Below are positions 12,594 through 26,852 of a stretch of DNA of 26,852 bases, piece after piece. The position numbers and the translations under genes are program-made. The notes below the pieces were generated by a model that did not search any database, had not been told where the DNA came from, and saw only the letters and a list, made by a program, of their open reading frames with translations. Source of the DNA: a virus (taxonomy: Duplodnaviria; Heunggongvirae; Uroviricota; Caudoviricetes). Position 1 is the first letter of the stretch; each line of letters starts with the position of its first letter. The stretch spans positions 1 through 26,852 of the IMG/VR virus record IMGVR_UViG_2778261537_000020; one strand, written 5' to 3'.

Positions 12594-13676
12594 ATGAAAA
12601 AATTAACAGTGGCAATTTCTGCTGTAGCTGCATCAGTACTGATGGCGATGTCTGCTCAGGCAGCTGAAATTTATAATAAAGACAGTAACAAGCTGGATCT
12701 ATATGGGAAAGTTAATGCCAAGCACTACTTCTCCTCTAATGATGCAGATGATGGTGATACTACTTATGCCCGTCTTGGCTTCAAAGGTGAAACCCAAATC
12801 AACGATCAACTGACTGGTTTCGGTCAGTGGGAATATGAATTCAAAGGCAACCGCGCTGAATCTCAAGGCTCCTCCAAAGACAAAACCCGTCTTGCATTTG
12901 CAGGCCTGAAATTCGGGGACTACGGCTCAATCGATTACGGCCGTAACTACGGTGTAGCATATGACATCGGTGCGTGGACTGACGTTCTGCCAGAATTCGG
13001 TGGCGATACCTGGACCCAAACAGATGTGTTCATGACTGGTCGCACCACTGGTGTTGCAACTTATCGTAACAACGACTTCTTTGGTCTGGTTGATGGTCTG
13101 AACTTTGCTGCTCAGTATCAGGGTAAAAATGACCGCACTGACGTAACTGAAGCTAATGGTGATGGTTTCGGTTTCTCCACTACTTATGAGTATGAAGGAT
13201 TCGGTGTAGGTGCAACCTATGCTAAATCTGACCGCACTAATAATCAGGTTATCTACGGTAACAACAGCCTGAATGCATCTGGTCAAAATGCTGAAGTATG
13301 GGCAGCTGGTCTGAAATATGATGCGAACAACATCTATCTGGCTACCACCTATTCTGAAACCCAGAACATGACTGTTTTTGGTAATAACCATATTGCCAAC
13401 AAAGCACAAAACTTCGAAGTAGTTGCACAATATCAGTTCGACTTCGGTCTGCGTCCGTCCGTTGCTTACCTGCAATCTAAAGGAAAAGACTTGGGTGCGT
13501 GGGGTGATCAGGACCTGGTTGAATATATTGATGTAGGTGCAACCTATTACTTCAACAAAAATATGTCCACTTTTGTTGATTACAAAATCAACCTGATTGA
13601 TAAGAGCGATTTCACGAAAGCATCTGGCGTTGCTACCGATGATATCGTTGCTGTAGGTATGGTTTACCAGTTCTAA
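12594..13676 (+). CDS. nmpC: Outer-membrane general porin, NmpC/Lc (OmpC/OmpF family), apparently intact
   Basis: 360 aa with signal peptide [30 protein letters not shown]... and C-terminal ...VAVGMVYQF porin signature. Confidence 0.9.
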
Positions 13677-13691
13677 TTTGATTACTAAAAG

Positions 13692-13725
13692 ATATGTTGC
13701 GGGAGGCTTTGCCTCCCCAACATAT
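13692..13725. terminator. Long imperfect palindrome/hairpin immediately downstream of the porin gene
   Basis: atatgttgcgggaggc-ttt-gcctccccaacatat read directly. Confidence 0.3.
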
Positions 13726-13813
13726 AAGTGGCTCCCTCAAGCCACTTCCTTTAGGAGCACAACCTTGCTTCTAACTATATAAACCTTCTGTTATATATTA
13801 CCCTTTATTTTTG

Positions 13814-13847
13814 GGGGCGTTGCAACGCCCCATTTTTAATAATTTTT
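13814..13847 (+). terminator. Rho-independent terminator (perfect 18-bp palindrome followed by a T-run) for the porin transcript
   Basis: ggggcgttgcaacgcccc followed by atttttaataattttt. Confidence 0.45.
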
Positions 13848-13864
13848 AGTAAACAATTGGCATA

Positions 13865-14263
13865 TTAATTAGAGTTATTAACAACGATATCCATCTCTAA
13901 CCGGATATCTAATGCCATTAACATCCCTTCAATTATGCCCTCAGCCTTCTGTAACCTTTTCCCGATATAACCATCAGAGCAGCAATGCTTACCTGCCAGT
14001 GACATGAATGTCATACCGACTACATAATAATCTACTAATAAATCGTGCAAATCGCTGTTGTTCTTTTTCAGACGGGCCATGCACCCGCAAATAATCATCG
14101 CGTCATCGTCACAACATTGCGGGCGAGATTTTACTTTTGAAGTAATTAATCCCTTAAAACCGGCGGCAATGGACGACCAGGTCACATCTTCATGATTATT
14201 AGCCGCCCACGCTCCCCAACGCTCAAGAACCATCTGAATATCACGCATCAACTTACTCCACAA
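13865..14263 (-). CDS. Q: Late-gene antiterminator Q (DLP12 QuuD-like)
   Basis: 132-aa ORF (...[24 protein letters not shown]...[16 protein letters not shown]...), Cys-rich zinc-binding region; sits between rusA/ylcG and the lysis cassette. Confidence 0.8.
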
Positions 14264-14333
14264 AAATCAGACCAGCACGCCAATTACAAGCAAAAATCAA
14301 CAAAACAGTATTAGTTGATTGTTATCTCTGACT

Positions 14334-14471
14334 TCATACTCCTGCTCCTGTCAGGGTTTTGGCGTAATTCTTCAGTATTCGGTAATCGGTCAAAACAGAA
14401 CCGGGGAAACGATATAAGCGCAGATGCCCCCAGCGGTGGCGAAGAAGTTCTGCCATATAAAACTCAAACAT
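14334..14471 (-). CDS. ylcG: Small protein YlcG-like (46 aa)
   Basis: Hand translation [45 protein letters not shown]; ATG overlaps the rusA stop. Confidence 0.4.
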   Translation of the reverse strand: MFEFYMAELLRHRWGHLRLYRFPGSVLTDYRILKNYAKTLTGAGV

Positions 14472-14833
14472 CATTCATTCCCCATTTCGGTGATGGTCAG
14501 TTCCAGCCTCCCACCTTTGGTAACAGGCATCTTCACAACGCGGTAATCAACGACCTGAGCATCATCCAGCCAGAAACCTGCTTTGGTGAGTGCGTCAAAA
14601 GCGGCTTTTTGCAGATTATCCAGGTCACGGCGACGGCGATCCGGCATGTGGCACTCAATGCGGATTTTCACAGGCATAGCCAGGCCGATATCCAGCATTG
14701 CGTTTTTAATGATTCGGGCGACGTTATCGCGGTATGCCTGCCCCTCTGCACTGACGTGCGTGCGCCCGCGATTATGGCGGTAATAGCGATTATTGCTCGG
14801 AGGCCAGGGTAATGTGATACTGTAGGTATTCAC
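14471..14833 (-). CDS. rusA: Holliday junction resolvase RusA
   Basis: 120 aa [97 protein letters not shown]... Confidence 0.9.
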
Positions 14834-15120
14834 GCCTTAATAACCCCCTCTTTCAGCCAGATAACCTGTGTTCTCGCCATACCTTCCAGCGCGCATTCTT
14901 TTGCATATGCAGCATCGACAAAATGTGTGCGGCGGTCGATTTCGTCGTGGCAGGCAGAACATGCAATGGTGGCAATCAGGTCTGGCGGTTTGATACCGGT
15001 ACCGCACAATCCAGCCAGCCGGATATGTGCCAGTACAGACGTTTCAGAATTGCCATTACATACGCCAGGGATTCTTACCTGGCATTCCCGACCACGCGCT
15101 GCTTTTCTCAAATCAGCCAT
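14830..15120 (-). CDS. ybcO: YbcO-like nin-region protein (Cys-rich, putative nuclease, DUF1364-type)
   Basis: [42 protein letters not shown]...; 96 aa from the internal Met of the track ORF. Confidence 0.6.
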
Positions 15121-15283
15121 GATTCCTCCTTGCTGCCAGTCGCAACCATTTTTTATCAACCAGGCTAGCGGTATATCCGAGCAGTGTTGGTATTTCGGAT
15201 GGCTTCAGCTCAGGCTTACGCTTACGACGATTTGATACTCTGTAGATGTGTCCGTTCATGACACGAATAAGCGGTGTAGCCAT
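15113..15283 (-). CDS. ninE: NinE
   Basis: Hand translation [56 protein letters not shown]; overlaps the ybcN stop and the ybcO start; not in the ORF track (under 60 aa). Confidence 0.6.
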   Translation of the reverse strand: MATPLIRVMNGHIYRVSNRRKRKPELKPSEIPTLLGYTASLVDKKWLRLAARRNHG

Positions 15284-15738
15284 TACGCCTCCTGCTTGTC
15301 GCGGAGCAGCTGGAACTCGCAGCTCTGCGGAATAGTCAGGTGGCAGCCAATATTCACCGCCCAGGCTTCAACCTTACACAGGAAGACATACATCTCTCCG
15401 GTATCAAGATCGGAGGTATGGCGTAACGACTGGATAGTGGTGATATCACCGGTTACGACATCAACCAGGTCTTTGGTTTCATAACCGAGATATGTGTGTT
15501 TGAGAGCATCTTTTACCCAAGCTGGAGTGGCGAACGTTTTACCCCTGCTGATGAGGTATTCACTGATTTCGCTGTACCACATGTGGCTGAGTGCATTCTG
15601 GGAAAGACTGCGTTTCTCACGCCACGGTTTAAGCACCATGCGAAAGCATTTGCCCTCCTCCAGATAAGGCTGGATCTGCCGACCGATAGCGGTGAAGTTG
15701 CCGCGATGTAATTTGATGCCGTCTTGTGAGAGGTTCAC
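15283..15738 (-). CDS. ybcN: YbcN-like nin-region protein
   Basis: 151-aa [64 protein letters not shown]... Confidence 0.6.
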
Positions 15739-15952
15739 GCTTCACCTCCGCAGAGGTCAAACGCTAGATGCAAAGAATTGCAGGTGCATTTCTGCATCTG
15801 TGAAGGGAGAAGAGAGTTTGGATTGTATGTGCGCATAAACGTCCCCGTTTAGCGCAGAAGTCACCGGAGTTGTTCAGGCTCCGGTGACATAATTATGCCG
15901 TGTTGATTTCCCAAAATCAAAATCGATAGAATTGCTCCTTCTTAAAACACTT

Positions 15953-16750
15953 TTACTCTCTGGAAGCTTTTCTTATCTCTCTTGGTGTTATATTAAAACG
16001 ATTATGAAATCTTTCAGTAAAACGAGAAGGACACTTATAACCATTTTCTCTGGCAATCTCGCTTATAGGTTTTACCGTCGTTTGTATAGCAGACAACGCA
16101 TTATTTAACCTCACATCGTCCAGTATACTTTGGAAACTTACCCCCTCGCTTGCTAGACGGCGATGTAATGTAGAAACAGAAATGTAGAGATATCGAGCAA
16201 CCTTGTTTGCTGTCCATTTTGTGCCGGGTTCGGATAGCAGCAGGTTATAACAACGACTTATCAATGATTGTTTACTATATGATAAAAGTAAATGATTAAC
16301 ATGATTCACTCCTAACGAAAGTAGAACGCCCATTGCTAAGTGCTCCTGAATTTTAGTTGAGAAGCCTCGGGAAACAGATGTTTTTAGTTGCTCCCAACAA
16401 TATATTAACTCAGGATTCTGAGGTAAAAAGAAACTTGTTTTGTTACGTATTTGATCAGTTACCGTATAAAGTTTTTGGAAACTCTCAATTAAATCAATGG
16501 GTAAGTAAAGCATTTCTGCAAGATAAAGCCCTGCTTCAGGATAATTCTCAATATAAAATTCATAACCACAAGGAAATAATATTATTTGATTATTATCAAC
16601 AGTTAAAGTATGCGTCTCCCAATTGATAACTTTCTTTCCCTGACGGATACGACACAAAGCTGGCATAAGAGGCTTAACCCTATGAATCTCATGATGTTTA
16701 TGCATCCGTATTTCTTCGATCTTTAAGTTAGTCTTACCTCTTGCCAGCAT
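15953..16750 (-). CDS. ybcM: AraC/XylS-family transcriptional regulator (YbcM-like)
   Basis: 265 aa; C-terminal AraC-type HTH (...[45 protein letters not shown]...[32 protein letters not shown]); AT-rich gene. Confidence 0.8.
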
Positions 16751-16759
16751 ACTCTCACC

Positions 16760-17311
16760 CTACTTTATCTCATAAACTGGTGTTATCTCAGCGGTTGCGA
16801 TTTTATTAGCATTAAGCATATAACCAACTAACGCTCCGCTGGAGTTAGAATCTACAGGAATCTTTTCAGTTTTTAGAGCCCATACTTTAAACTGGTAATG
16901 ATGTGGTTTATCTCCTTTAGGAGGACATGCGCCACCAAACCCAGCATAGCCAAAATCATTTCGGCCTTGAACAGCACCAGTCGGCAGTTTTGTTCCATCA
17001 CGTCTCCCTGCATCAACGGGCAAATATGTTACTGTTGCTGGAATATTAACAACAGTCCAATGCCACCAACCACTGCCTGTAGGTGCATCTGGATCATATA
17101 CAGTTACGGCAAAGCTTTTGGTACCTTCAGGAACACCAGACCAGGTTAATGAGGGCGATGTATTACCACCTTCACACCCAAATCCAGAAAAGACATGAGA
17201 CGTTGTAAGTTGCTCTCCTGTTTTTATTTCATTACTAGTGACCTGAAATGCTGCAGCCTGCGCAGAAAATGTTATGAATGCCAATACAGTTGAAACGATA
17301 AGTGTTTTCAT
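16760..17311 (-). CDS. ybcL: Secreted PEBP/RKIP-family protein (YbcL-like)
   Basis: 183 aa with signal peptide MKTLIVSTVLAFITFSAQA; ...FAVTVYDPDAPTGSGWWHWTVVNIP... and ...GFGGACPPKGDKPHHYQFKVWAL... PEBP motifs. Confidence 0.75.
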   Translation of the reverse strand: MKTLIVSTVLAFITFSAQAAAFQVTSNEIKTGEQLTTSHVFSGFGCEGGNTSPSLTWSGVPEGTKSFAVTVYDPDAPTGSGWWHWTVVNIPATVTYLPVDAGRRDGTKLPTGAVQGRNDFGYAGFGGACPPKGDKPHHYQFKVWALKTEKIPVDSNSSGALVGYMLNANKIATAEITPVYEIK

Positions 17312-17775
17312 AAAAACCTCTTTGTTATGACCTATCGTTATTTTATTTGATATTCCTTTATCTCATTATGCATAAAGGCGCAATGTTCATGCAAAAGCAA
17401 TCACAATTGTACCCCCAACCCAATTATTTGCCACAATATACACAAAGCACATTGATACTATCTAAAAACTCTGCTTTATTATTAGTAATACCTACGAAAG
17501 TCGGTGTTATTTTTTAACCTACCATTCAAAATACGTGACATACACCATTTTGCTCATAATAATTTGTCACGTATTTTCAGTATTTGAATCTGCGACCAAG
17601 AGTTCTCACCTAACAAATGATTAAGATTGTATAGCTCATTTACTACCCCAATACAGCCGTACAAAACTCGCTTGTGGGAGCAAACAAAGTAATTACCCAT
17701 TAAGTTTCGTCAAAGATAATTAATTCTGTCTTGCACTTTATCACCATAGCATAACTTAAAATCCGAGATCATTAT

Positions 17776-19302
17776 TTAGAAATAAATCTCACCATCAACC
17801 ATATATTTGAGAGCACTTATCGCCTGCTGGGCGGATATTACTTTCATTAAAGGATAGTGTTTAAAAACAATGCCATTCATAAAATAGATATCACAGGTTT
17901 TATTATCCGTATTAATTATGATTTTTTCGAATGTTTTATAGGCAAGTGTACGGCATAACTCTCGTCCATTTTTACTGGTTAAGTCAATAGCATAAAAATC
18001 ACTGAATGAATTTACACCTTTACTCTTCAAAGTTTTCAATGATACCGAAGCCCTTCGTAATTCCTTATCTAATAGTCTTATTTTCTCTGCTATAGCGGTA
18101 ACTTCAGGCGCGACAGACAATGCAACGATTAAATTATTAATTTTCATCTGAAGCTCAATAATTTTTAACTCTAAAGTTTCATTAGCATCTTTCTTGTTTT
18201 CAACTGGTTGAATTTTGCTACAATTAAAAAGCAATTCATTAATGATATTATAATCAACCAAATCTCTTTTTATTGATGGCCTGTCACATCGATGTAATCT
18301 TCTCATCGGACAAACATAATAGCCATGCAAACTTCCAGATACCGCATGAACAATCATGGTATTACCACAAGCCTCACACTTCATAACTGTTCGAAGTAGA
18401 TTTATTAGCATAGGATTCTTGCTACTATTGCTAATACCAAAAGGTGCCAACCGAATTTCCTGTACAGCGTAAAACAAATCATCTGATATGACTCTGGGAT
18501 AATAGCCAGCGATTTCACTTATCCCTTTCCCTCTTGCACGATATGAAGGTACGCATATACCTATCAGAGCTTTATTCGCTAATAATTTTTCAATTACAGA
18601 AGGTCCCCATGCACTTTCTTTTCCTGAGAAATTCTTTACAGCATGATCATTTAAATACTTGGCTATTGCATTCAATGAGCGCCTTTCCATCCTGAGTTTA
18701 AAAATTAGCTCAATAGTTTTCACCCTGTCGGGGTCTGGAACAAAAGCCGTTCTTTTGTCATCTAAGGAGAGCCATCTCGGACAAGACGCCGTCATAATCG
18801 TACCTGATTCCAGTGCATCCTGCCGTTTTTTCTTCCATGATAATTTAACCCGACTTGACTTTATCTCGCTTTCTTCATTTGCCCTTTGTGCTATAAGTAT
18901 GGCTTTTATTAATGAATATGGCTCATTCAAAGAGTCAATATTATAGACTGTATGGTCGCAAAGAGTTATAACATCAATACCGTGATTCAAAATCAATTTC
19001 AGACGTTCAATCGCTTCACCGACTTTTTCTCTTGAAAGTCTGTCCAGACTTTCAACTAACAATGTAGTTCCTGGCAATATATAACCATGCTCTATAGCAT
19101 CTAAAAATTCCGAAAAAGCTCCTGATTGTGCATGCTTTCCTTTGAATGCACTTAATCCTAAATCTTCATATGTTATGGTATCAAGATAATAATCACTATT
19201 TACCTTTAACCATTCAGCAATAAGTCTTCTCTGTCGGTTTAATGAGTCGCCAGACATCTGACCTGGTGATGAAAATCGCATATATGCTATGGCTTTTTTC
19301 AT
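17776..19302 (-). CDS. ybcK: Large serine recombinase (YbcK-like): resolvase catalytic domain, recombinase domain, Cys-rich zinc ribbon
   Basis: 508 aa; N-terminal AIAYMRFSSPGQ...SLNRQ (catalytic Ser), ...VESLDRLSR...; later ...KCEACGNTM...YYVCPMRRLHRCD; AT-rich. Confidence 0.85.
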   Translation of the reverse strand: MKKAIAYMRFSSPGQMSGDSLNRQRRLIAEWLKVNSDYYLDTITYEDLGLSAFKGKHAQSGAFSEFLDAIEHGYILPGTTLLVESLDRLSREKVGEAIERLKLILNHGIDVITLCDHTVYNIDSLNEPYSLIKAILIAQRANEESEIKSSRVKLSWKKKRQDALESGTIMTASCPRWLSLDDKRTAFVPDPDRVKTIELIFKLRMERRSLNAIAKYLNDHAVKNFSGKESAWGPSVIEKLLANKALIGICVPSYRARGKGISEIAGYYPRVISDDLFYAVQEIRLAPFGISNSSKNPMLINLLRTVMKCEACGNTMIVHAVSGSLHGYYVCPMRRLHRCDRPSIKRDLVDYNIINELLFNCSKIQPVENKKDANETLELKIIELQMKINNLIVALSVAPEVTAIAEKIRLLDKELRRASVSLKTLKSKGVNSFSDFYAIDLTSKNGRELCRTLAYKTFEKIIINTDNKTCDIYFMNGIVFKHYPLMKVISAQQAISALKYMVDGEIYF

Positions 19303-19556
19303 GGTGACACCTGCTAACGTATGCTTTTATAAACCTTAGTGGTGGGATATAATTTTTGTTTAATTTTTATTTAAAAAGACAATTAAGGTCACATTATCTT
19401 GAATATACAACAATAATGGTATTGCATTTTTCTTACGCGATAATCTTGAAATCACAAAAGAATACATAAAAAATAAAGACATTAACAAAAAGCATAAAAC
19501 GAGGCTCATATAAATATAAGAGCCTCCATATTTTAGTCGTTTAGAAACAAATTATT

Positions 19557-19889
19557 TTAATGTGGTGTGCTTCGTGACAATAAATTAATAACCAACACAC
19601 CGGCACAAATCAACATCATGCCTATAATGGCTGGCAGGTCCAGCCGTTGGCCGAAAAATCCCCATGACAGTAAGCTAATCAGGACAATACCGACTCCTGA
19701 CCAGATAGCATAAGCAATCCCTGTAGGAATATAAGCCAGCGTCTGAGCTAATAACCAGAATGATGCACAATAACAAATAATTGTACCAACAGATGGCCAT
19801 AACCGTGTAAAACCTTCTGAAAACTTCATTAAGGTTGTACCAATGACCTCTGCAAGTATTGCACCACCAAGATAAATATAAGGGTTCAT
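19557..19889 (-). CDS. emrE: Small multidrug resistance efflux transporter EmrE
   Basis: MNPYIYLGGAILAEVIGTTLMKFSEGFTRLWPSVGTIICYCASFWLLAQTLAYIPTGIAYAIWSGVGIVLISLLSWGFFGQRLDLPAIIGMMLICAGVL...; 110 aa from the internal Met of the track ORF. Confidence 0.9.
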   Translation of the reverse strand: MNPYIYLGGAILAEVIGTTLMKFSEGFTRLWPSVGTIICYCASFWLLAQTLAYIPTGIAYAIWSGVGIVLISLLSWGFFGQRLDLPAIIGMMLICAGVLVINLLSRSTPH

Positions 19890-19956
19890 AGCATATTCTT
19901 TCCTGTTCAAACTGGAGAGAATTGTACTACAGTTTGAACTCAACTCACCTGTTTCA

Positions 19957-20259
19957 TCATTGTGTTCCCATTGATGTTCTTTTATATACCCTCAGTACCC
20001 GTTTCATCGCGGCACTCTGGCGACACTCCTTAAAAATCAGATTCGTGCTCACCTTTCCTTCCCGTTCTTCTCTGGTAGCGAACCGGTAATACACCGTTCG
20101 CCAGACCTTACCATCAACGACCAGGATTCCTGCCCGCGCCATTTTAGCCGCAGCCTGATTTATGCTGGTTACGGTTGCGCCTGTTACCGCGGCAACGTCC
20201 TGTGCACAGAAGCTCTTATGCGTCCCCAGGTAATGAATAATTGCCTCTTTGCCCGTCAT
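19957..20259 (-). CDS. ren: Ren (Rex-exclusion) protein, lambda-like
   Basis: 100 aa MTGKEAIIHYLGTHKSFCAQDVAAVTGATVTSINQAAAKMARAGILVVDGKVWRTVYYRFATREEREGK...; position immediately after P. Confidence 0.7.
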   Translation of the reverse strand: MTGKEAIIHYLGTHKSFCAQDVAAVTGATVTSINQAAAKMARAGILVVDGKVWRTVYYRFATREEREGKVSTNLIFKECRQSAAMKRVLRVYKRTSMGTQ

Positions 20260-20957
20260 ACACTTGCTCCTTTCAGTCCGAACTTAGCTTTGATTTCTGC
20301 GATCTTCGCCAGAGCCTGTGCACGATTTAGAGGTCTACCGCCCATGACAGGAAGTTGTTTTACTGGTTCAGGTATCGCCTCACCACGGTTAATTCGCGCG
20401 GTCATACAGGACAGTTCATCGGCAGCCTTGCGCCGTAATTCCGCGTCAGTCAACGCATTGGCCCGCATGTTCTGATACAGGTTGGTAACCAGCCAGTAGT
20501 GCGCGTTTGATTTCCACGGATAAGACTCTGCATCCGGATACAGACCACGCTTCCGGCAATACTCGTAAACCATATCAACCAGCTCGCTGACGTTTGGCAG
20601 CCCGGCGGTAACGGATGCTTCTTCCCGGCACCATGCAACAAACTGCCCGGGTGATGGCAGAAATGGTCTATTCTGCCGACGGGCAACACGCATTCCGGCG
20701 CTCACCTGTTCCATCGTGGTGATCCCGTTTTCCCGGAAAGCCAGAACCCACTGGCGGCGGATTTCGTTCAGTTCGTTCTGGTCACGATTAGCCAGGCTCG
20801 CCGGGAAAGTTGCCAGTAACTGGCTGAATACACCGTTGATTATCTGCGCTACCTGCTGTACCTGCGGCTTTTCGTCGTACTGTTCCGGCATGTTGTTGGC
20901 GATCCGACGCATCTGCTCACGGTCAAAGTTAATCATCTGTGCGGCGATGTTTTTCAT
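20256..20957 (-). CDS. P: Replication protein P (DnaB helicase loader)
   Basis: 233 aa MKNIAAQMINFDREQMRRIANNMPEQYDEKPQVQQVAQIINGVFSQLLATF..., near-identical to remembered lambda P. Confidence 0.9.
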   Translation of the reverse strand: MKNIAAQMINFDREQMRRIANNMPEQYDEKPQVQQVAQIINGVFSQLLATFPASLANRDQNELNEIRRQWVLAFRENGITTMEQVSAGMRVARRQNRPFLPSPGQFVAWCREEASVTAGLPNVSELVDMVYEYCRKRGLYPDAESYPWKSNAHYWLVTNLYQNMRANALTDAELRRKAADELSCMTARINRGEAIPEPVKQLPVMGGRPLNRAQALAKIAEIKAKFGLKGASV

Positions 20958-21973
20958 AGATCCACCCCGTAAATCCAGTCTGTGTTTGTCAGGTCGAGTT
21001 TTGGTTTGCTAGCTGTCACGCCTGCCTGTTGCTTGTTACGGTTGATTTCGAGTTGGGTCCACTTGTCGCGGAGTTTGGCCGGACTTAGCACGTTACCGGA
21101 CCAGAAGTTGTCCTGGCATGCCCAGCGGAACAGCACGCACATGTCGCGGTGGTTACGTCCGTCACGTTCACGCATCAGGCGGATATCGTTAGCCCACCCT
21201 GCAAAATTCGGTTTTCTGGCTGATGGCGCGATGGTCTTCACCATGTCAAACATCCACTCTGCGGCGGTCAGGTCTTCTGCTGTCCCCCACTTGCTGCCGC
21301 TCTGAATTGCAGCATCCGGTTTCACCACAGGAAGATCGTTTTCTGGTTGGTCAGAGGATTCGCCAGAATTCTCGGACGAAAAAGGTTTTATATTGTCTTT
21401 TGTTAGTTTGTCTTTTGTGTTTACCTGATTCGGGTAAACGCCTTTACCTGATTTGGGTAAACTTTTTTTACCTGATTCAGGTAAATTTACCTCTTTCAGG
21501 TAAACTTTATTTTTCTTACCTGATTCGGGTAATGTTGACCATTCACTGACCACATTATTAATGCCGGTATTCCGCCCGCTCTGAATAAAAATCCCACGCT
21601 TTACCAGAACACTTTTTGCAGCAGAACACTTGTGCGGCAATATCCCGGTTAATTCGGAAAGTTGCTCGTTGCTAACCCAATCCAGTTTTTTATTAAAGCC
21701 ATATGTTTTGCGCATGACAGCCAGAAAGACCAGAAGCTGGTGCTGTGTTAATCCGGCCAGCATCACAGCTTCCAGCAACTCATTTGCAATGCGCGTATAA
21801 CCATCATCGAGATCTGCCACGCGCGGCTCCTTTTGTGCCGCATCCGGCACTGGAAAATTGAATATCTCAGCAGTGTTTGCCATAATTCCTCCCGCAATGA
21901 GTGTGTTACGATTTGCACCTGAAAGTCGGTTCTGTTCCAGCAGACCGGCTTTCGCCATTTCTGAACCTGTCAT
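20954..21973 (-). CDS. O: Replication initiator O (lambda-O-like C-terminus; divergent iteron-binding N-terminal domain); real start may be the internal Met at ~21883
   Basis: C-terminal ...AGWANDIRLMRERDGRNHRDMCVLFRWACQDNFWSGNVLSPAKLRDKWTQLEINRNKQQAGVTASKPKLDLTNTDWIYGVDL matches lambda O; N-terminal ...VADLDDGY...LTQHQLLVFLAVMRKTYGFNK...; iterons lie inside the gene. Confidence 0.85.
   Translation of the reverse strand: MTGSEMAKAGLLEQNRLSGANRNTLIAGGIMANTAEIFNFPVPDAAQKEPRVADLDDGYTRIANELLEAVMLAGLTQHQLLVFLAVMRKTYGFNKKLDWVSNEQLSELTGILPHKCSAAKSVLVKRGIFIQSGRNTGINNVVSEWSTLPESGKKNKVYLKEVNLPESGKKSLPKSGKGVYPNQVNTKDKLTKDNIKPFSSENSGESSDQPENDLPVVKPDAAIQSGSKWGTAEDLTAAEWMFDMVKTIAPSARKPNFAGWANDIRLMRERDGRNHRDMCVLFRWACQDNFWSGNVLSPAKLRDKWTQLEINRNKQQAGVTASKPKLDLTNTDWIYGVDL
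21421..21534. repeat. ori: Replication-origin iterons: five ~19-bp imperfectly palindromic repeats (consensus ttacctgattcgggtaaac) inside O
   Basis: Copies starting at 21421, 21444, 21468, 21487 and 21516; encode the repeated LPESGKK... peptide of O. Confidence 0.7.
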
Positions 21974-22509
21974 ATCGCCCCCAGCATGGTAGTAACCATC
22001 GCCATCAATGGACCAGCCAGATCTGGGTCCACACGAAACATCGACACAATACCTTCACTAATTTCCTTCAGTTTCTGGTGGCGTGGTGCGTTGAGAATGA
22101 CAGCCTGTTTTGCCTCACTGAGTTCCTTTTCCATTTCAGCCAACCTAGCCATGAAGCTATCCTGCTCAACCAGGTAACCGCGATATTCCAGCGGTAGTAC
22201 CGCCAGAATTGCCGGGGTCAGTTCACGCACGTTATTTCGGTATTTTTCAGAATCGAATTTGTTATCGAGGAAGCGGAACAGCTTCTGGCGTGCACGGCTG
22301 ACATCATCAGGGAAATCGATGGTGCCGCCGCCCTGCTCCCGATACTCATTCACAATGAGTGTGGCAACGACATCCTGATTATCTACAGCCGACCAGGCGC
22401 GGACGGCATCACGGATTTTTTCGTGGCCTGGCACCTGTTTTGTTTGAGAACGATTTATCACCGCAGTCGGGCTAAATCCGCTAGTCTGTTGGTATGTAAG
22501 TGGTTGCAT
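21970..22509 (-). CDS. CII-like/YdaT-like early regulator (hypothetical; family assignment tentative)
   Basis: 179-aa ORF between cro and O in the cII position; stop overlaps the O ORF start (ATGA). Confidence 0.4.
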   Translation of the reverse strand: MQPLTYQQTSGFSPTAVINRSQTKQVPGHEKIRDAVRAWSAVDNQDVVATLIVNEYREQGGGTIDFPDDVSRARQKLFRFLDNKFDSEKYRNNVRELTPAILAVLPLEYRGYLVEQDSFMARLAEMEKELSEAKQAVILNAPRHQKLKEISEGIVSMFRVDPDLAGPLMAMVTTMLGAI

Positions 22510-22578
22510 AATTGACTCCTTTAGTTTGAATTGACTGTTAAGTTGATTGCTTATTGTTAAAGAGCGTGAAATGGAAAT

Positions 22579-22809
22579 TTAAGCTGCGTTCTTTTCGGTG
22601 TGTGGAAACAACTTCGGAAGATCCGGGCGAATCTGGTATGCCTTCACTACTCCACCAGTAGCCGTAACAATGCTGCCGACATGTTCAGGGGATACCTTTG
22701 CTTTGTTGTGAAGCCACTTATAGACGGCCTGCTGTGAAACTTCGCAAGCAGCGCCCAGTTTCTTTTGTGAACCAACGATATTGATCGCTGTTTTGATAGC
22801 TGGGTTCAT
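22579..22809 (-). CDS. cro: Cro-like HTH repressor (YdaS/Cro family)
   Basis: 76 aa; HTH ...GSQKKLGAACEVSQQAVYKW...; divergent from cI; GGAGG RBS. Confidence 0.7.
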   Translation of the reverse strand: MNPAIKTAINIVGSQKKLGAACEVSQQAVYKWLHNKAKVSPEHVGSIVTATGGVVKAYQIRPDLPKLFPHTEKNAA

Positions 22810-22836
22810 AACAACCTCCGTGGTTAATTTGAATCA

Positions 22837-22870
22837 AGATTAAAACTATGGTTGTTTTTAGTCAACAACC
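22837..22870 (-). promoter_or_regulatory. Putative pR (-35 TTGACT, 17-nt spacer, -10 TAATCT on minus strand) overlapping an operator palindrome GGTTGTT-N7-AACAACC
   Basis: Palindrome ggttgtttttagtcaacaacc at 22850-22870; promoter hexamers read from the reverse complement upstream of cro. Confidence 0.4.
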
Positions 22871-22878
22871 ATTTTCGT

Positions 22879-22916
22879 TTGATGGAATAAAACCTTGGTT
22901 GTACATTTGGACTATG
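22879..22916 (+). promoter_or_regulatory. Putative pRM-like promoter giving a leaderless cI mRNA (-35 TTGATG, -10 TACATT, ATG 7 nt downstream)
   Basis: Hexamers at 22879-22884 and 22902-22907 with 17-nt spacing; ATG at 22914 has no obvious Shine-Dalgarno. Confidence 0.3.
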
Positions 22917-23603
22917 AAAACAACACTCTCAGAAAGACTTAAAGAAGCCAGATTAGCGCGAGGCCTTACACAAAAGGCGCTTGGGGATTTGGTCGGGGTT
23001 AGCCAGGCTGCTATTCAGAAAATCGAAACAGGGAAAGCTAATCAAACAACTAAAATCGTGGAGATCGCGAACGCTTTGGGTGTGCGCGCAGAATGGTTAT
23101 CTTCTGGCGTTGGAAATATGTCAGACAGTACAGTGCAACCAATACAATCAACTGTCAGCCATTCCAAATACTTCAAGATTGACGTTCTTGATATAGAAGT
23201 CAGTGCTGGGCCGGGAGTCATCAACCGTGAGTTTGTAGAAGTTCTACGCTCGGTTGAGTACTCGTTTGACGATGCTCGTCACATGTTCGATGGTAGGAAG
23301 GCGGAAAATATCCGCATCATTAACGTGCGTGGTGACAGCATGTCAGGAACGATCGAACCAGGTGATCTGCTGTTCGTTGATATCACAGTTAAATCTTTCG
23401 ACGGTGATGGTATCTATGCGTTTCTGTACGACGACACAGCCCATGTAAAGCGCCTGCAAATGATGAAGGATAAGCTGCTGGTCATCTCTGATAACAAAAG
23501 CTACTCACCGTGGGACCCGATCGAGAAAGACGAGATGAACCGGGTGTTCATCTTCGGTAAGGTTATTGGGAGCATGCCGCAGACATATAGGAAGCATGGG
23601 TAG
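22914..23603 (+). CDS. cI: CI-type prophage repressor (N-terminal HTH, C-terminal LexA/S24-like autocleavage domain)
   Basis: MKTTLSERLKEARLARGLTQKALGDLVGVSQAAIQKIETGK... HTH; C-terminal ...VRGDSMSGTIEPGDLLFVD...VKRL...; track ORF starts 22 codons upstream at 22848. Confidence 0.85.
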   Translation: MKTTLSERLKEARLARGLTQKALGDLVGVSQAAIQKIETGKANQTTKIVEIANALGVRAEWLSSGVGNMSDSTVQPIQSTVSHSKYFKIDVLDIEVSAGPGVINREFVEVLRSVEYSFDDARHMFDGRKAENIRIINVRGDSMSGTIEPGDLLFVDITVKSFDGDGIYAFLYDDTAHVKRLQMMKDKLLVISDNKSYSPWDPIEKDEMNRVFIFGKVIGSMPQTYRKHG

Positions 23604-23724
23604 TACCAATTAAAAATTATCAACTGGGCATTGTGCTCATTCAGTAAAGAACTAATTCCTATCTTTGCTCTAGGTAGTAATATTAAGCCACCGCAATAAT
23701 ATCTTTACCTAACGGCGTAAGAAT

Positions 23725-23751
23725 CCCGGTCACCGTGCCGGGTTTTCTTTT
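23725..23751 (+). terminator. Intrinsic terminator-like hairpin plus T-run downstream of cI
   Basis: cccggtcaccgtgccggg followed by ttttcttttg. Confidence 0.4.
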
Positions 23752-23888
23752 GCCCTCCCCTCATCACACACACCGTTAAAAAAACCACCATAACCTCGCT
23801 TCAGTTATCGCTATGCGATTCAAGTCACAAAATAAATCCATCCTAAATACAACCAGTTATATCTAAAACAACCAATAAAACAACTTTT

Positions 23889-23921
23889 GTTGTTGACGAT
23901 AAAACAACTATAGTTTTAAAT
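23889..23921 (+). promoter_or_regulatory. Putative pL (-35 TTGACG, 17-nt spacer, -10 TTAAAT) overlapping an operator palindrome GTTGTT-N8-AACAAC
   Basis: gttgttgacgataaaacaac at 23889-23908; same architecture and spacer motif (aaaacaac.atagttt) as the putative pR. Confidence 0.4.
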
Positions 23922-24114
23922 AAGTTCATCGCAACAACACAACGATACGGCAACTACCTGATTCACCGTTGCGATGACCGCTTAGATCCGCAGTTTGAAT
24001 TTCAGCAGGCTTCGGGGAGTGCGAGGGGTGAAACGGACGCGTGAACGTCGGTGTGACCAGCTGAAATTAACTCAACATTTCATACCTTAGTCGCTTTAAC
24101 GAGGCGGCTTAGTT

Positions 24115-24405
24115 ATGACAACCGGCGGCCATCCACCGCCTGAATACGCGCAGAAGTCTCTATATGTTCAGCAGCCCAGCTTACGGGCAGGAGTTTTTAT
24201 GGTTCATCAACATTATGGAACGCAGACCGTTAATCGAGGTGCGGTCATGCCAGGAATGCTGGTCAAACACAAAGATGGTACCTGGACTGCATCAGCTAAT
24301 TTACGCGGACGGCTTTATCTGCATCGCGGCATCGAGCGCACTTATACCCGTGATTTGCTCGTGGAAGTTTTTCTCGACGGACGCGGTAACGGCCTGAATC
24401 ACTAA
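24115..24405 (+). CDS. Hypothetical early-left protein in the kil/cIII position (frame uncertain; a 77-aa ORF at 24164..24397 overlaps in another frame)
   Basis: 96-aa ORF immediately upstream of gam; no recognisable family. Confidence 0.3.
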
Positions 24406-24480
24406 TCCCCTTTCCTGTTTTCCTAATCAGCCTGGCATTTCGCGGGCGATATTTTCACAGCTATTTTCAGGAGGTCAGCC

Positions 24481-24777
24481 ATGAACGCTTATTACATTCA
24501 GGATCGTCTTGAGGCTCAGAGCTGGGCGCGTCACTACCAGCAGATCGCCCGTGAAGAGAAAGAGGCAGAACTGGCAGACGACATGGAAAAAGGCCTGCCC
24601 CAGCACCTGTTTGAATCGCTATGCATCGATCATTTGCAACGCCACGGGGCCAGCAAAAAAGCCATTACCCGTGCGTTTGATGACGATGTTGAGTTTCAGG
24701 AGCGCATGGCAGAACACATCCAGTACATGGTTGAAACCATTGCTCACCACCAAGTTGATATTGATTCAGAGGTATAA
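24481..24777 (+). CDS. gam: Gam (RecBCD inhibitor), short 98-aa form
   Basis: [60 protein letters not shown]...[10 protein letters not shown] matches lambda Gam; in-frame stop 57 nt upstream of the ATG. Confidence 0.85.
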
Positions 24778-24782
24778 AACGG

Positions 24783-25568
24783 ATGAGTACAGCACTCGCA
24801 ACGCTGGCAGGGAAGCTGGCTGAACGTGTCGGCATGGATTCTGTCGACCCACAGGAACTGATCACCACTCTTCGCCAGACGGCATTTAAAGGTGATGCCA
24901 GCGATGCGCAGTTCATCGCATTGCTGATCGTCGCCAACCAGTACGGCCTTAATCCGTGGACGAAAGAAATTTACGCCTTCCCTGATAAGCAGAACGGCAT
25001 TGTTCCGGTGGTGGGCGTTGATGGCTGGTCCCGCATCATCAATGAAAACCAGCAGTTTGATGGCATGGACTTTGAGCAGGACAATGAATCCTGTACATGC
25101 CGGATTTACCGCAAGGACCGTAATCATCCGATCTGCGTTACCGAATGGATGGATGAATGCCGCCGCGAACCATTCAAAACCCGCGAAGGCAGAGAAATCA
25201 CGGGGCCGTGGCAGTCGCATCCCAAACGGATGTTACGGCATAAAGCCATGATTCAGTGTGCCCGTCTGGCCTTCGGATTTGCTGGTATCTATGACAAGGA
25301 TGAAGCCGAGCGCATTGTCGAAAATACTGCATACACTGCAGAACGTCAGCCAGAACGCGACATCACTCCGGTTAACAATGAAACCATGCAGGAGATTAAC
25401 ACTCTGCTGATCGCCCTGGATAAAACATGGGATGACGACTTATTGCCGCTCTGTTCCCAGATATTTCGCCGCGACATTCACGCATCGTCAGAACTGACAC
25501 AGGCCGAAGCAGTGAAAGCTCTTGGATTCCTGAAACAGAAAGCCACTGAGCAGAAGGTGGCAGCATGA
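24783..25568 (+). CDS. bet: Bet (Red-beta single-strand annealing recombinase)
   Basis: 261 aa [66 protein letters not shown]..., near-identical to remembered lambda Bet. Confidence 0.95.
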
Positions 25569-26245
25569 TACCGGACATTATCCTGCAGCGTACCGGGATC
25601 GACGTGAGAGCTGTCGAACAGGGGGATGATGCATGGCACAAATTACGGCTCGGCGTCATCACCGCTTCAGAAGTTCACAACGTGATAGCAAAGCCCCGCT
25701 CAGGAAAGAAGTGGCCTGACATGAAAATGTCCTACTTCCACACCCTGCTGGCTGAGGTTTGCACCGGTGTGGCTCCGGAAGTTAATGCTAAGGCGCTGGC
25801 CTGGGGAAAACAGTACGAGAACGACGCCAGAACCCTGTTTGAATTCACTTCCGGCGTGAATATTACTGAATCCCCGATCATCTATCGCGACGAAAGTATG
25901 CGCACCGCCTGCTCCCCCGATGGTTTATGCAGTGACGGCAACGGCCTTGAACTGAAATGCCCGTTTACCTCCCGGGATTTCATGAAATTCCGGCTCGGTG
26001 GTTTCGAGGCAATAAAATCGGCTTACATGGCCCAGGTGCAGTACAGCATGTGGGTGACGCGAAAAGATGCCTGGTACTTTGCCAACTATGACCCGCGCAT
26101 GAAGCGTGAAGGCCTGCATTATGTCGTGATTGAGCGGAATGAAAAGTACATGGCGAGTTTTGACGAGATGGTGCCGGAGTTCATCGAAAAAATGGACGAG
26201 GCACTGGCTGAAATTGGTTTTGTATTTGGGGAGCAATGGCGATGA
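25565..26245 (+). CDS. exo: Exo (lambda 5'-3' exonuclease, Red-alpha)
   Basis: 226 aa [64 protein letters not shown]..., near-identical to remembered lambda Exo. Confidence 0.95.
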
Positions 26246-26424
26246 CGCATCCTCACGATAATATCCGGGTAGGCGCGATCACTTTCGTCTACTCCGTTAC
26301 AAAGCGAGGCTGGGTATTTCCCGGCCTTTCTGTTATCAGAAATCCACTGAAAGCACAGCGGCTGGCTGAGAAGATAAATAATAAACGGGAGGCGGTATGC
26401 ACAAAGCATCTCCTGTTGAGTTAA
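26236..26424 (+). CDS. Small ORF downstream of exo (lambda orf60a-like)
   Basis: 62-aa [65 protein letters not shown] overlapping the exo stop, as remembered for lambda. Confidence 0.35.
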
Positions 26425-26852
26425 GAACGAGTATTGAGATGGCACATACCGCCTGTAAAGTGTTGCGTGATCAAATAGGCAAGCATCACAAATGGGTGTT
26501 TGTACATACCAAGGCGGCTAAGCGAGCAGATGGAACATCAACGCCTGCGGTCAGGAAGATGCGCATCGACAGCAAGACATCATGGCTATCAGCTTGTCGT
26601 CGTGCAGGAATTGAAGATTTCCGTTTCCATGACCTCAGACACACCTGGGCAAGCTGGCTGATTCAGTCAGGCGTCCCATTATCAGTGCTTCAGGAAATGG
26701 GCGGATGGGAGTCCATAGAAATGGTTCGTAGGTATGCTCACCTTGCGCCTAATCATTTGACAGAGCATGCGAGGAAAATAGACGACATTTTTGGTGATAA
26801 TGTCCCAAATATGTCCCACTCTGGAATTATGGAGGATATAAAGAAGGCGTAA
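26397..26852 (+). pseudogene. int: Tyrosine integrase, C-terminal catalytic domain only (about 150 of ~390 residues); first ~17 codons resemble lambda orf63, so probably an orf63'-'int deletion fusion
   Basis: ...[47 protein letters not shown]... (R, H-x-x-R and Y catalytic residues); in-frame stop 15 nt upstream of the ATG, so no N-terminal domains in this frame; ORF ends at the window edge. Confidence 0.7.

Follow-up and report, generated by a model that had tools for sequence, protein, structure and literature searches.

The early-left operon of a DLP12-type prophage carries neither a recognizable N gene nor a put RNA

Layout of the locus

The window analysed here, the whole 26,852-nucleotide (nt) stretch of a Caudoviricetes virus record (IMGVR_UViG_2778261537_000020, positions 1 to 26,852), carries a lambdoid immunity region that is followed by an early-left operon with the genes kil, gam, bet and exo. 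Processive antitermination has its classic example in lambdoid phages, and the known solutions for their early operons are the N protein acting with nut sites and the put RNA. An earlier reading of this DNA (the original prediction) had noted that no N-like gene lies between the putative left early promoter, pL, and the recombination genes, and had offered three explanations: deletion of N, RNA-based antitermination as in HK022, or no antitermination at all. That observation is essentially right, and the locus appears to be the normal N-less, put-less early-left operon of DLP12-type phages. In plus-strand view, the window shows the lambda-type map in reverse orientation (Table 1).

A repressor with helix-turn-helix (HTH) and S24 peptidase domains and a Cro-like protein are encoded divergently, and operator repeats are common to the left and right operators (OL and OR), as in lambdoid immunity regions. 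The cI reading frame is open from 22848, and RefSeq relatives use the ATG equivalent to 22914-22917. Downstream of cI, the terminator-like hairpin previously seen at this place was confirmed (CCCGGTCACCGTGCCGGG, then TTTTCTTTTG); it is predicted to close the cI/moron transcript, as an analogue of lambda tIMM. The alignability of most relatives with the window begins at this terminator, the start falling at 23719-23725 in 65 of 80 loci. The ca. 110 nt between the terminator and the operators (23752-23858) are 83-96% conserved even among heteroimmune phages, and no open reading frame (ORF) or motif was recognized there.

The OL/pL block that follows is the most variable among relatives, including heteroimmune ones. 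Three AAAACAAC-type operator repeats recur at OR (22840-22858), and the segments 23901-23919 and 22840-22858 are 95% complementary. Within these repeats lies the proposed pL, which we uphold as a candidate, with a -35 element TTGACG (23893-23898), a 17-nt spacer and a -10 element TTAAAT (23916-23921). A consensus promoter scan did not list it, because its -10 element has no A at position 2. The candidate is supported by its overlap with the operators, by equivalent promoters at the same place in two other immunity types (TTGATA-17-TATTAT and TTGACT-17-TATTGT), and by the homologous promoter-operator region in Erwinia phage phiEt88 and Klebsiella phage ST101-KPC2phi6.1. Transcription would then start near 23928.

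The first listed ORF after pL, 24115..24405, had been called unrelated to N, and indeed it encodes Kil. Membership in this family is indicated both by phrog_294 and by PF27398, which is carried by 149 Kil homologues. The homologues from Klebsiella, Citrobacter, Enterobacter, Shimwellia and Salmonella are 67-68 amino acids (aa) long and start at the equivalent of ATG 24199, a codon with a Shine-Dalgarno sequence, GGAG, before it; the extension in the same frame from ATG 24115 is confined to Escherichia. RefSeq also starts kil at the equivalent of ATG 24199 and leaves the 595 bp between cI and kil empty. Because homologues and RefSeq annotation agree on this start, Kil most likely begins at ATG 24199. 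The untranslated leader that had been proposed downstream of pL is thus present, with a probable length of ca. 270 nt rather than ca. 190 nt.

Table 1. Features of the immunity region, the early-left operon and the pR side in the window (CDS, coding sequence)
Feature	Position	Strand	Evidence and details
cI-type repressor, HTH + S24 peptidase	22917..23603	+	PHROG phrog_4, E 3e-72; Pfam Peptidase_S24, HTH_3; cI annotation in PhiR34_1
Intrinsic terminator (predicted)	23725..23751	+	hairpin CCCGGTCACCGTGCCGGG at 23725-23742, 6-bp GC stem, then T-run TTTTCTTTTG
OL operator repeats overlapping candidate pL	23859..23921	+	AAAACAAC motifs, e.g. 23875-23891, 23899-23919; direct and inverted repeats shared with OR
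Stem-loop at leader 5' end	23927..23976	+	9-bp stem CAUCGCAAC/GUUGCGAUG, 32-nt loop
Conserved leader core	23963..24079	+	G-rich; 24036-24067 nearly invariant in conservation profile
31-codon ORF with Arg-rich RTRERR motif, in kil frame	23995..24090	+	TTG start; internal GTG 24028; encodes ..VKRTRERRCDQLK..
Leader 3' part	24080..24198	+	hairpin 24090-24110 and highly conserved stretch 24115-24198
kil, FtsZ-inhibitor family, 68 aa	24199..24405	+	phrog_294, E 1.2e-38; RefSeq CDS
gam	24481-24777	+	ORF list; PhiR34_1 annotation
bet	24783-25568	+	ORF list; PhiR34_1 annotation
exo	25565-26245	+	ORF list; PhiR34_1 annotation
cro-type repressor (YdaS-like), first pR-operon gene	22579..22809	-	phrog_35; Pfam YdaS_toxin, P22_Cro
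rrn-type boxA CGCUCUUUAACAA (also written CGCTCTTTAACAA)	22554..22566	-	exact consensus match
Q-like late antiterminator, quuD type	13865..14263	-	phrog_79, E 4e-53

Searches for N, Nun and put, and the lineage

Pfam and PHROG profiles were run on the ORFs 23995-24090, 24115-24405 and 24164-24397, on the minus-strand ORFs, and on a 136-aa open form found in a relative (locus L029). None of these ORFs matched an N family (Pfam N36, PF11438; N_peptide, PF25694; PHROG), and the same search recovered the N proteins of two comparison prophages, L111 (N_peptide, E 3.8e-18) and L103 (N36, E 2.3e-22). When lambda-type N and HK022 Nun were compared with the whole window by tblastn, nothing meaningful resulted (best E 0.12, with stops in the alignment), and Nun gave no match. 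On the pL strand of leader and operon, no boxA with one mismatch or fewer was present in any E. coli locus examined; no boxB hairpin was found at either the pL or the pR operon, and no lambda-type nut site was recognized.

For put, a covariance model was built from seven sequences (putL and putR of HK022, and putL of phiEt88, HK639, CobraSix, S9-5 and PdC23), in whose alignment 7 of 16 pairs show compensatory changes. The model scores 96-104 bits on five putL elements and ca. 62 bits on PdC23 putL and HK022 putR (61.5 for the latter). It also finds the held-out putR of phiEt88 at 58.5 bits and two copies in Siccibacter prophages. On the window, with filters off, the best score was 5.6 bits (E 2.9), with no hit on the leader strand and none after cro. 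Searches against the N, Nun and put families, which had been suggested along with the original prediction, were thus negative throughout with working positive controls. At the level of sequence, N, Nun and HK022-type put RNA are absent from the window; the lack of N between pL and the recombination genes is borne out, and the HK022 type of RNA antitermination is not supported as its explanation. As a by-product, phiEt88 was found to carry an unannotated putL (L116:3067-3149, minus strand; 103 bits) and putR (L116:4370-4446, plus strand).

No work on how these phages transcribe their early genes came up in our literature searches (Bievrevirus, the names GevT and GevA, N-less lambdoids and DLP12). 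It has been stated that an N-less lambdoid 'may' use put (PMC12315714), and an assay is available for put action via the beta-prime zinc-binding domain of RNA polymerase (PMC9378689).

The N-less layout is widely shared. The region under study is 99.8% identical to that of the viable phage PhiR34_1 and 98.7% identical to that of phage Turner; from the terminator onward, ca. 12 further phages, including the Bievrevirus members 4A7 and Perceval, match at 90-97% identity. Throughout these phages the order is cI, optional accessory genes, terminator, pL, leader, kil, gam, bet and exo. Moreover, 2222 of 5426 complete E. coli genomes (41%) contain the leader (23929-24114) with 90-100% identity, almost always as a single copy and unannotated. 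Since the same arrangement is found in viable phages and in so many complete genomes, the missing N is best described as a trait of a large viable lineage and not as a lesion private to the window. The proposal that N was deleted survives only as a possible old event in this lineage; it does not hold as something specific to the window.

Positions 14000-26852 match E. coli chromosomes at the tRNA-Arg/intD site, where genes are named ybcK, ybcM and intD, and on these grounds we assign the window to the DLP12 family as a Bievrevirus-like lambdoid prophage. Near-identity and synteny with named members (4A7, Perceval, PhiR34_1, Turner) agree with this assignment, as does the insertion site, which is the same for these phages and DLP12 of E. 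coli K-12. The nin cargo is shared as well (emrE, ybcK, ybcL, ybcM, ybcN, rusA, quuD and an nmpC-type porin). DLP12 of K-12 has lost its immunity and replication region, so that the leader should not be in the K-12 reference.

Between exo and the 3' part of int, relatives have 2030 bp that are missing from the window. The junction, at 26446-26448 with a 3-nt overlap, is seen on comparison with otherwise 100% identical E. coli chromosomes, and the missing DNA extends from inside a DUF1317 gene after exo to ca. 757 bp into intD. The deletion takes away small early-left genes, the remnant of an excisionase gene and the 5' part of int, and with these losses this copy of the prophage should be unable to excise.

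Constraint on the pL leader

The inverted repeat that the original prediction had described in the leader is present (CATCGCAAC at 23927-23935, GTTGCGATG at 23968-23976), although the leader as a whole is not unusually stable: its predicted structure, suggested earlier as a check, shows no gain over shuffled sequence (z = -0.71). In an O157-type variant (L029, L080), the first 34 leader nt, including the 5' arm of this stem-loop, are replaced, and because of this replacement the stem-loop does not look like an obligatory part of the conserved leader. Across 43 leader variants, none of the 63 predicted pairs shows a compensatory change, a weak result given that divergence is low. Nearer to kil, the pairing of the hairpin 24090-24110 is kept through changes of U-G to C-G or U-A, and its 3' arm contains GAGG upstream of ATG 24115.

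Two further candidate elements were considered and rejected. The loop of the first stem-loop contains an 11-mer, TACCTGATTCA (23955-23965), that is identical to the left half of the iterons of ori within gene O (21420-21535). It was dismissed as an O-binding site, being only half of a palindromic iteron; its first base is C in most relatives, and the match is probably due to chance. A Rho loading site is not convincing either, the first 60 nt of the leader having only a mild excess of C (C/G 1.6) before a G-rich block begins.

Among 66 distinct relatives, nucleotide diversity is 0.023 over 23963-24027 and 0.032 over 24028-24114. At fourfold-degenerate sites of kil, gam and bet in the same relatives it reaches 0.071-0.099, which makes the leader 2-4 fold less diverse than the fourfold sites of adjacent genes. 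The most conserved stretch of the entire cI-to-bet region is 24115-24198, with 4 variable sites in 84 nt and a diversity of 0.005, a value that is partly an artefact of a sample selected on this frame. This stretch may act as a linker in recombination or as a site of regulation. Pieces of it recur before unrelated genes in Citrobacter prophages (L103:3646-3708, L110:3524-3584).

The original prediction had also held that no ORF with an Arg-rich N-terminus is present, which is literally wrong: the ORF 23995-24090 encodes an RTRERR motif. One could imagine a mini-N, an Arg-rich peptide that begins at GTG 24028 (MKRTRERRCDQLK...), occurs either free (20 aa in the window) or as an N-terminal extension of Kil, and binds an RNA hairpin. 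The peptide sequence R-T-R-E-R-R-C-D does resemble the RRRERRAE of lambda-type N proteins (those of L103 and L111). GGGGAG lies 8 nt upstream of the GTG, which is ATG in two variants, and both 1-nt indels among the variants fall upstream of it. In the window the ORF is closed by TAG 24088 and TAA 24097; most relatives have CAG and CAA at these positions, giving a 136-codon frame that is open into Kil.

The pattern of substitution nevertheless speaks against a peptide. There are nonsense alleles at both 24088, where the viable phages PhiR34_1, IdasGreatGrand and PhiR68_2 also have one, and 24097; the T at 24097 is peculiar to the window, all 68 other distinct upstream variants having C. Of 17 substitutions in 24028-24114 among relatives, 9, 3 and 5 fall on codon positions 1, 2 and 3, and only 5 are synonymous (0.29, against a neutral expectation of 0.30), compared with 21 of 23 in kil (Fisher p 1e-4). 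BLASTP of the ORF against N proteins gave nothing meaningful, and it matches neither Pfam N family; no boxB hairpin is there to be bound at either operon; and a 20-aa peptide would be without the NusA- and RNA polymerase-binding parts of N. Because of the nonsense alleles and the neutral evolution at codon level, we judge from these comparisons that the ORF is neither a conserved gene nor an N homologue, and the idea of a mini-N, largely refuted, is extremely improbable. Taken together, the low diversity and the neutral substitutions in the only long ORF indicate that the leader is constrained as a nucleotide sequence and not as a protein.

Might the leader instead be functionless debris, left when N (or put) and accessory genes were lost long ago by deletion or recombination? 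DNA upstream of Kil homologues from 27 species of other genera is unrelated to the leader, except for 40-60-nt pieces of 24080-24160, which in other prophages immediately precede kil or an extra gene. Between such pieces and the repressor/pL side, L103, L110 and L111 have N together with accessory genes, and L111 also shows a clear terminator there. Put phages are the nearest relatives of both the pL and the cro module, and the compact E. coli layout may go back to the loss of an antiterminator cassette along with its terminators. The 5' part of the leader, however, does not look like a remnant: when its first 150 nt were compared with N, nut and put regions of relatives, local alignments stayed at shuffle level in six comparisons. 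The sole alignment above background is a 21-nt match in phiEt88 at the extreme 5' end, adjoining the shared pL (fraction of shuffles at or above its score, 0.003). Debris, moreover, would hardly be less diverse than neutral sites and fixed in a large viable lineage, and an origin by deletion is compatible with a present function. We therefore hold it unlikely that the leader is mere debris.

The same constraint would suit a new cis-acting RNA in 23963-24198 that modifies the elongation complex or blocks Rho, a replacement of putL unrelated to it in sequence. Such an RNA, present in ca. 40% of complete E. coli genomes, would stand in for N or put, making early-left transcription resistant to Rho or terminators or otherwise timing the expression of kil and Red. 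The leader occupies the position of putL, downstream of a pL homologous to that of the put-using phage phiEt88. Heteroimmune phages have it in common from within 1-2 bases of the presumed transcription start, it is very widespread, and its diversity is low at nucleotide level. A mosaic module boundary, however, would equally produce sharing from the transcription start. Unlike put and nut systems, the leader has no second copy or like element downstream of pR; when the pR operon and the rest of the window were searched for a twin, only chance-level 9-11-mers appeared. A permissive Rfam scan of 21800-24600 likewise gave only chance-level matches (microRNA and counter-transcribed RNA families; E about 1-9), and the put model, the fold and the covariation analysis are negative as described above. 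Leader homologues were found only in Escherichia-type sequences, which makes comparative power low. Nor is there a strong terminator in the operon that would give the leader a job. We consider a dedicated antitermination RNA decidedly unlikely.

Read-through from pL and its significance

Two terminator scans found no strong intrinsic terminator between pL and exo. From pL to the end of the window, the only candidates are weak, at 24430-24447 (free energy -8.5) and at 26306-26328 (poor U-tract), and the same scans recover clear terminators at 23725, 13691 and 12145. In relatives that bear N or put, the interval from pL to kil holds additional genes along with terminators that are either annotated or visible (HK639, L111); the window has neither these genes nor these terminators. 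In HK639 and CobraSix, putL is followed by further genes and then by kil and gam, and the terminators of HK639 are annotated ones.

Because no strong terminator separates pL from exo, read-through is the simplest explanation for expression of gam, bet and exo, and among the options first proposed it is the last, no antitermination, that fits best. We put the probability at roughly 0.6 that the left operon is N-independent, with simple read-through from the repressor-controlled pL and no need for an early antiterminator of known kind. The cI terminator would be followed by the OL operators with pL and by the leader, which would run directly into kil-gam-bet-exo. After removal of the repressor, RNA polymerase that initiates at pL would meet no strong intrinsic terminator before exo, and simple read-through would presumably suffice for the expression of Kil and the Red functions; only the late genes would use an antiterminator, Q. 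The constraint on the leader would then reflect an ordinary role as a 5' untranslated region and not processive antitermination. For example, the leader might regulate how well the toxic kil message is translated or how stable it is, or might protect the untranslated RNA.

Several points weigh against this explanation. An untranslated leader of 270 nt is a natural target for Rho, and Rho-dependent terminators are outside the reach of the prediction used. A dedicated RNA function fits the start-point conservation in heteroimmune phages, the putL position and the purifying selection equally well, and the leader sits where phiEt88, with its homologous pL, carries putL. On the pR strand, plausible hairpin-plus-U terminators lie after emrE (ca. 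19500) and after ybcK (ca. 17532), before Q; as predicted structures they could block transcription toward Q, and the phage overall may still need some read-through mechanism.

The pR operon, on the minus strand, comprises cro, a gene for a 179-aa CII-like/YdaT protein, O, P, ren and then a nin region with emrE, ybcK, ybcL, ybcM, ninB, rusA and the Q-like gene. The Q-like protein is the only recognizable antiterminator protein in the window, and in the regulatory half of 4A7 (26000-49168) a Q-like protein is likewise the only annotated antiterminator. The window contains a single exact rrn-type boxA, against an expectation of 0 from 100 shuffles. This motif follows the cro stop at a distance of 13 nt, where lambda has nutR. 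It stands in the 69-nt cro-cII spacer, whose fold has an energy of only -4.1 kcal/mol with an unpaired centroid and which has no boxB hairpin after the boxA. All loci of this immunity type that were fetched share this boxA.

This boxA raises the possibility that boxA alone recruits host Nus factors for early transcription, as in rrn antitermination and with no phage protein. The perfect motif at the nutR position, its unstructured spacer and its conservation are all in keeping with such a scheme. It is confined, however, to the pR operon, the pL strand of leader and operon having no boxA with one mismatch or fewer, and heteroimmune phages that have the same N-less pL leader (the 4A7 immunity type) carry a GC hairpin with a CUAAUCU loop after cro in its place. 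Complexes of the rrn type, moreover, mainly counter Rho and not intrinsic terminators. As a general account of early transcription, boxA alone is highly improbable; it offers a lead on the pR side alone and leaves pL unaccounted for.

The hairpin found after cro in the 4A7 type and in ST101-KPC2phi6.1 (L005:1738-1767 and L117:572-610, both on the minus strand) has a 6-bp GC stem and a loop CUAAUCU or CUAACCA, which we take to resemble the boxB loop of phage 21; neither phage type has an annotated N. Among the DLP12 cargo in 12594-19943 are an SMR transporter of the emrE type (19557-19943), a 508-aa serine recombinase of the ybcK type (17776-19302), two genes of unassigned function and a plus-strand gene (12594-13676, phrog_410) that corresponds in position and length to a 4A7 gene annotated as porin OmpC.

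The early-left operon shares traits with several known systems. HK022 put and the leader are alike in position, as untranslated RNAs that directly follow pL in lambdoid phages without N, and the pL/operator module of the window has its homologue in phiEt88, a phage with putL and putR; the leader differs in its length (ca. 270 nt versus ca. 70 nt), in matching no put model, in showing no covariation support and in having no copy after cro. Lambda and the window share the repressor, OL/pL and early-left recombination genes, a boxA at the place of nutR and, in the leader, a motif (RTRERR) of N-like appearance. Unlike lambda, the window has no N gene, no boxB on either side and no boxA on the pL side, and its Arg-rich ORF is interrupted and evolves neutrally.

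N-independent derivatives of lambda (nin deletions, byp) express early genes without N, the terminators being missing or bypassed, and the pL operon of the window is likewise free of strong predicted terminators. Those derivatives, however, are laboratory mutants of an N-dependent phage, whereas the state described here is natural and lineage-wide, and candidate terminators remain in its pR operon. The Rac prophage offers another likeness, with a toxic kil-family gene (kilR) after a long leader that gives rise to an untranslated RNA, the small RNA KilS, with YdaS/YdaT-type immunity and no N. KilS (L115:5406-5503, E. coli K-12) ends in a hairpin and T-run, which the window leader does not have; homology of the leader with the kilR leader or KilS was considered and rejected, no sequence similarity being found.

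Thus, beside N with nut sites and put RNA, the DLP12 family appears to represent a third and very common state, an early-left operon with neither N nor put that is apparently served by plain read-through. If so, this would be ordinary biology, yet useful for annotation, giving a correct Kil start, a flag on a spurious upstream ORF and the identification of a 595-bp unannotated gap in RefSeq. If, on the other hand, the leader or the cro-proximal boxA acts on elongation, the known repertoire of phage antitermination would be wider, and the finding would bear on how prophage kil toxins stay silent.

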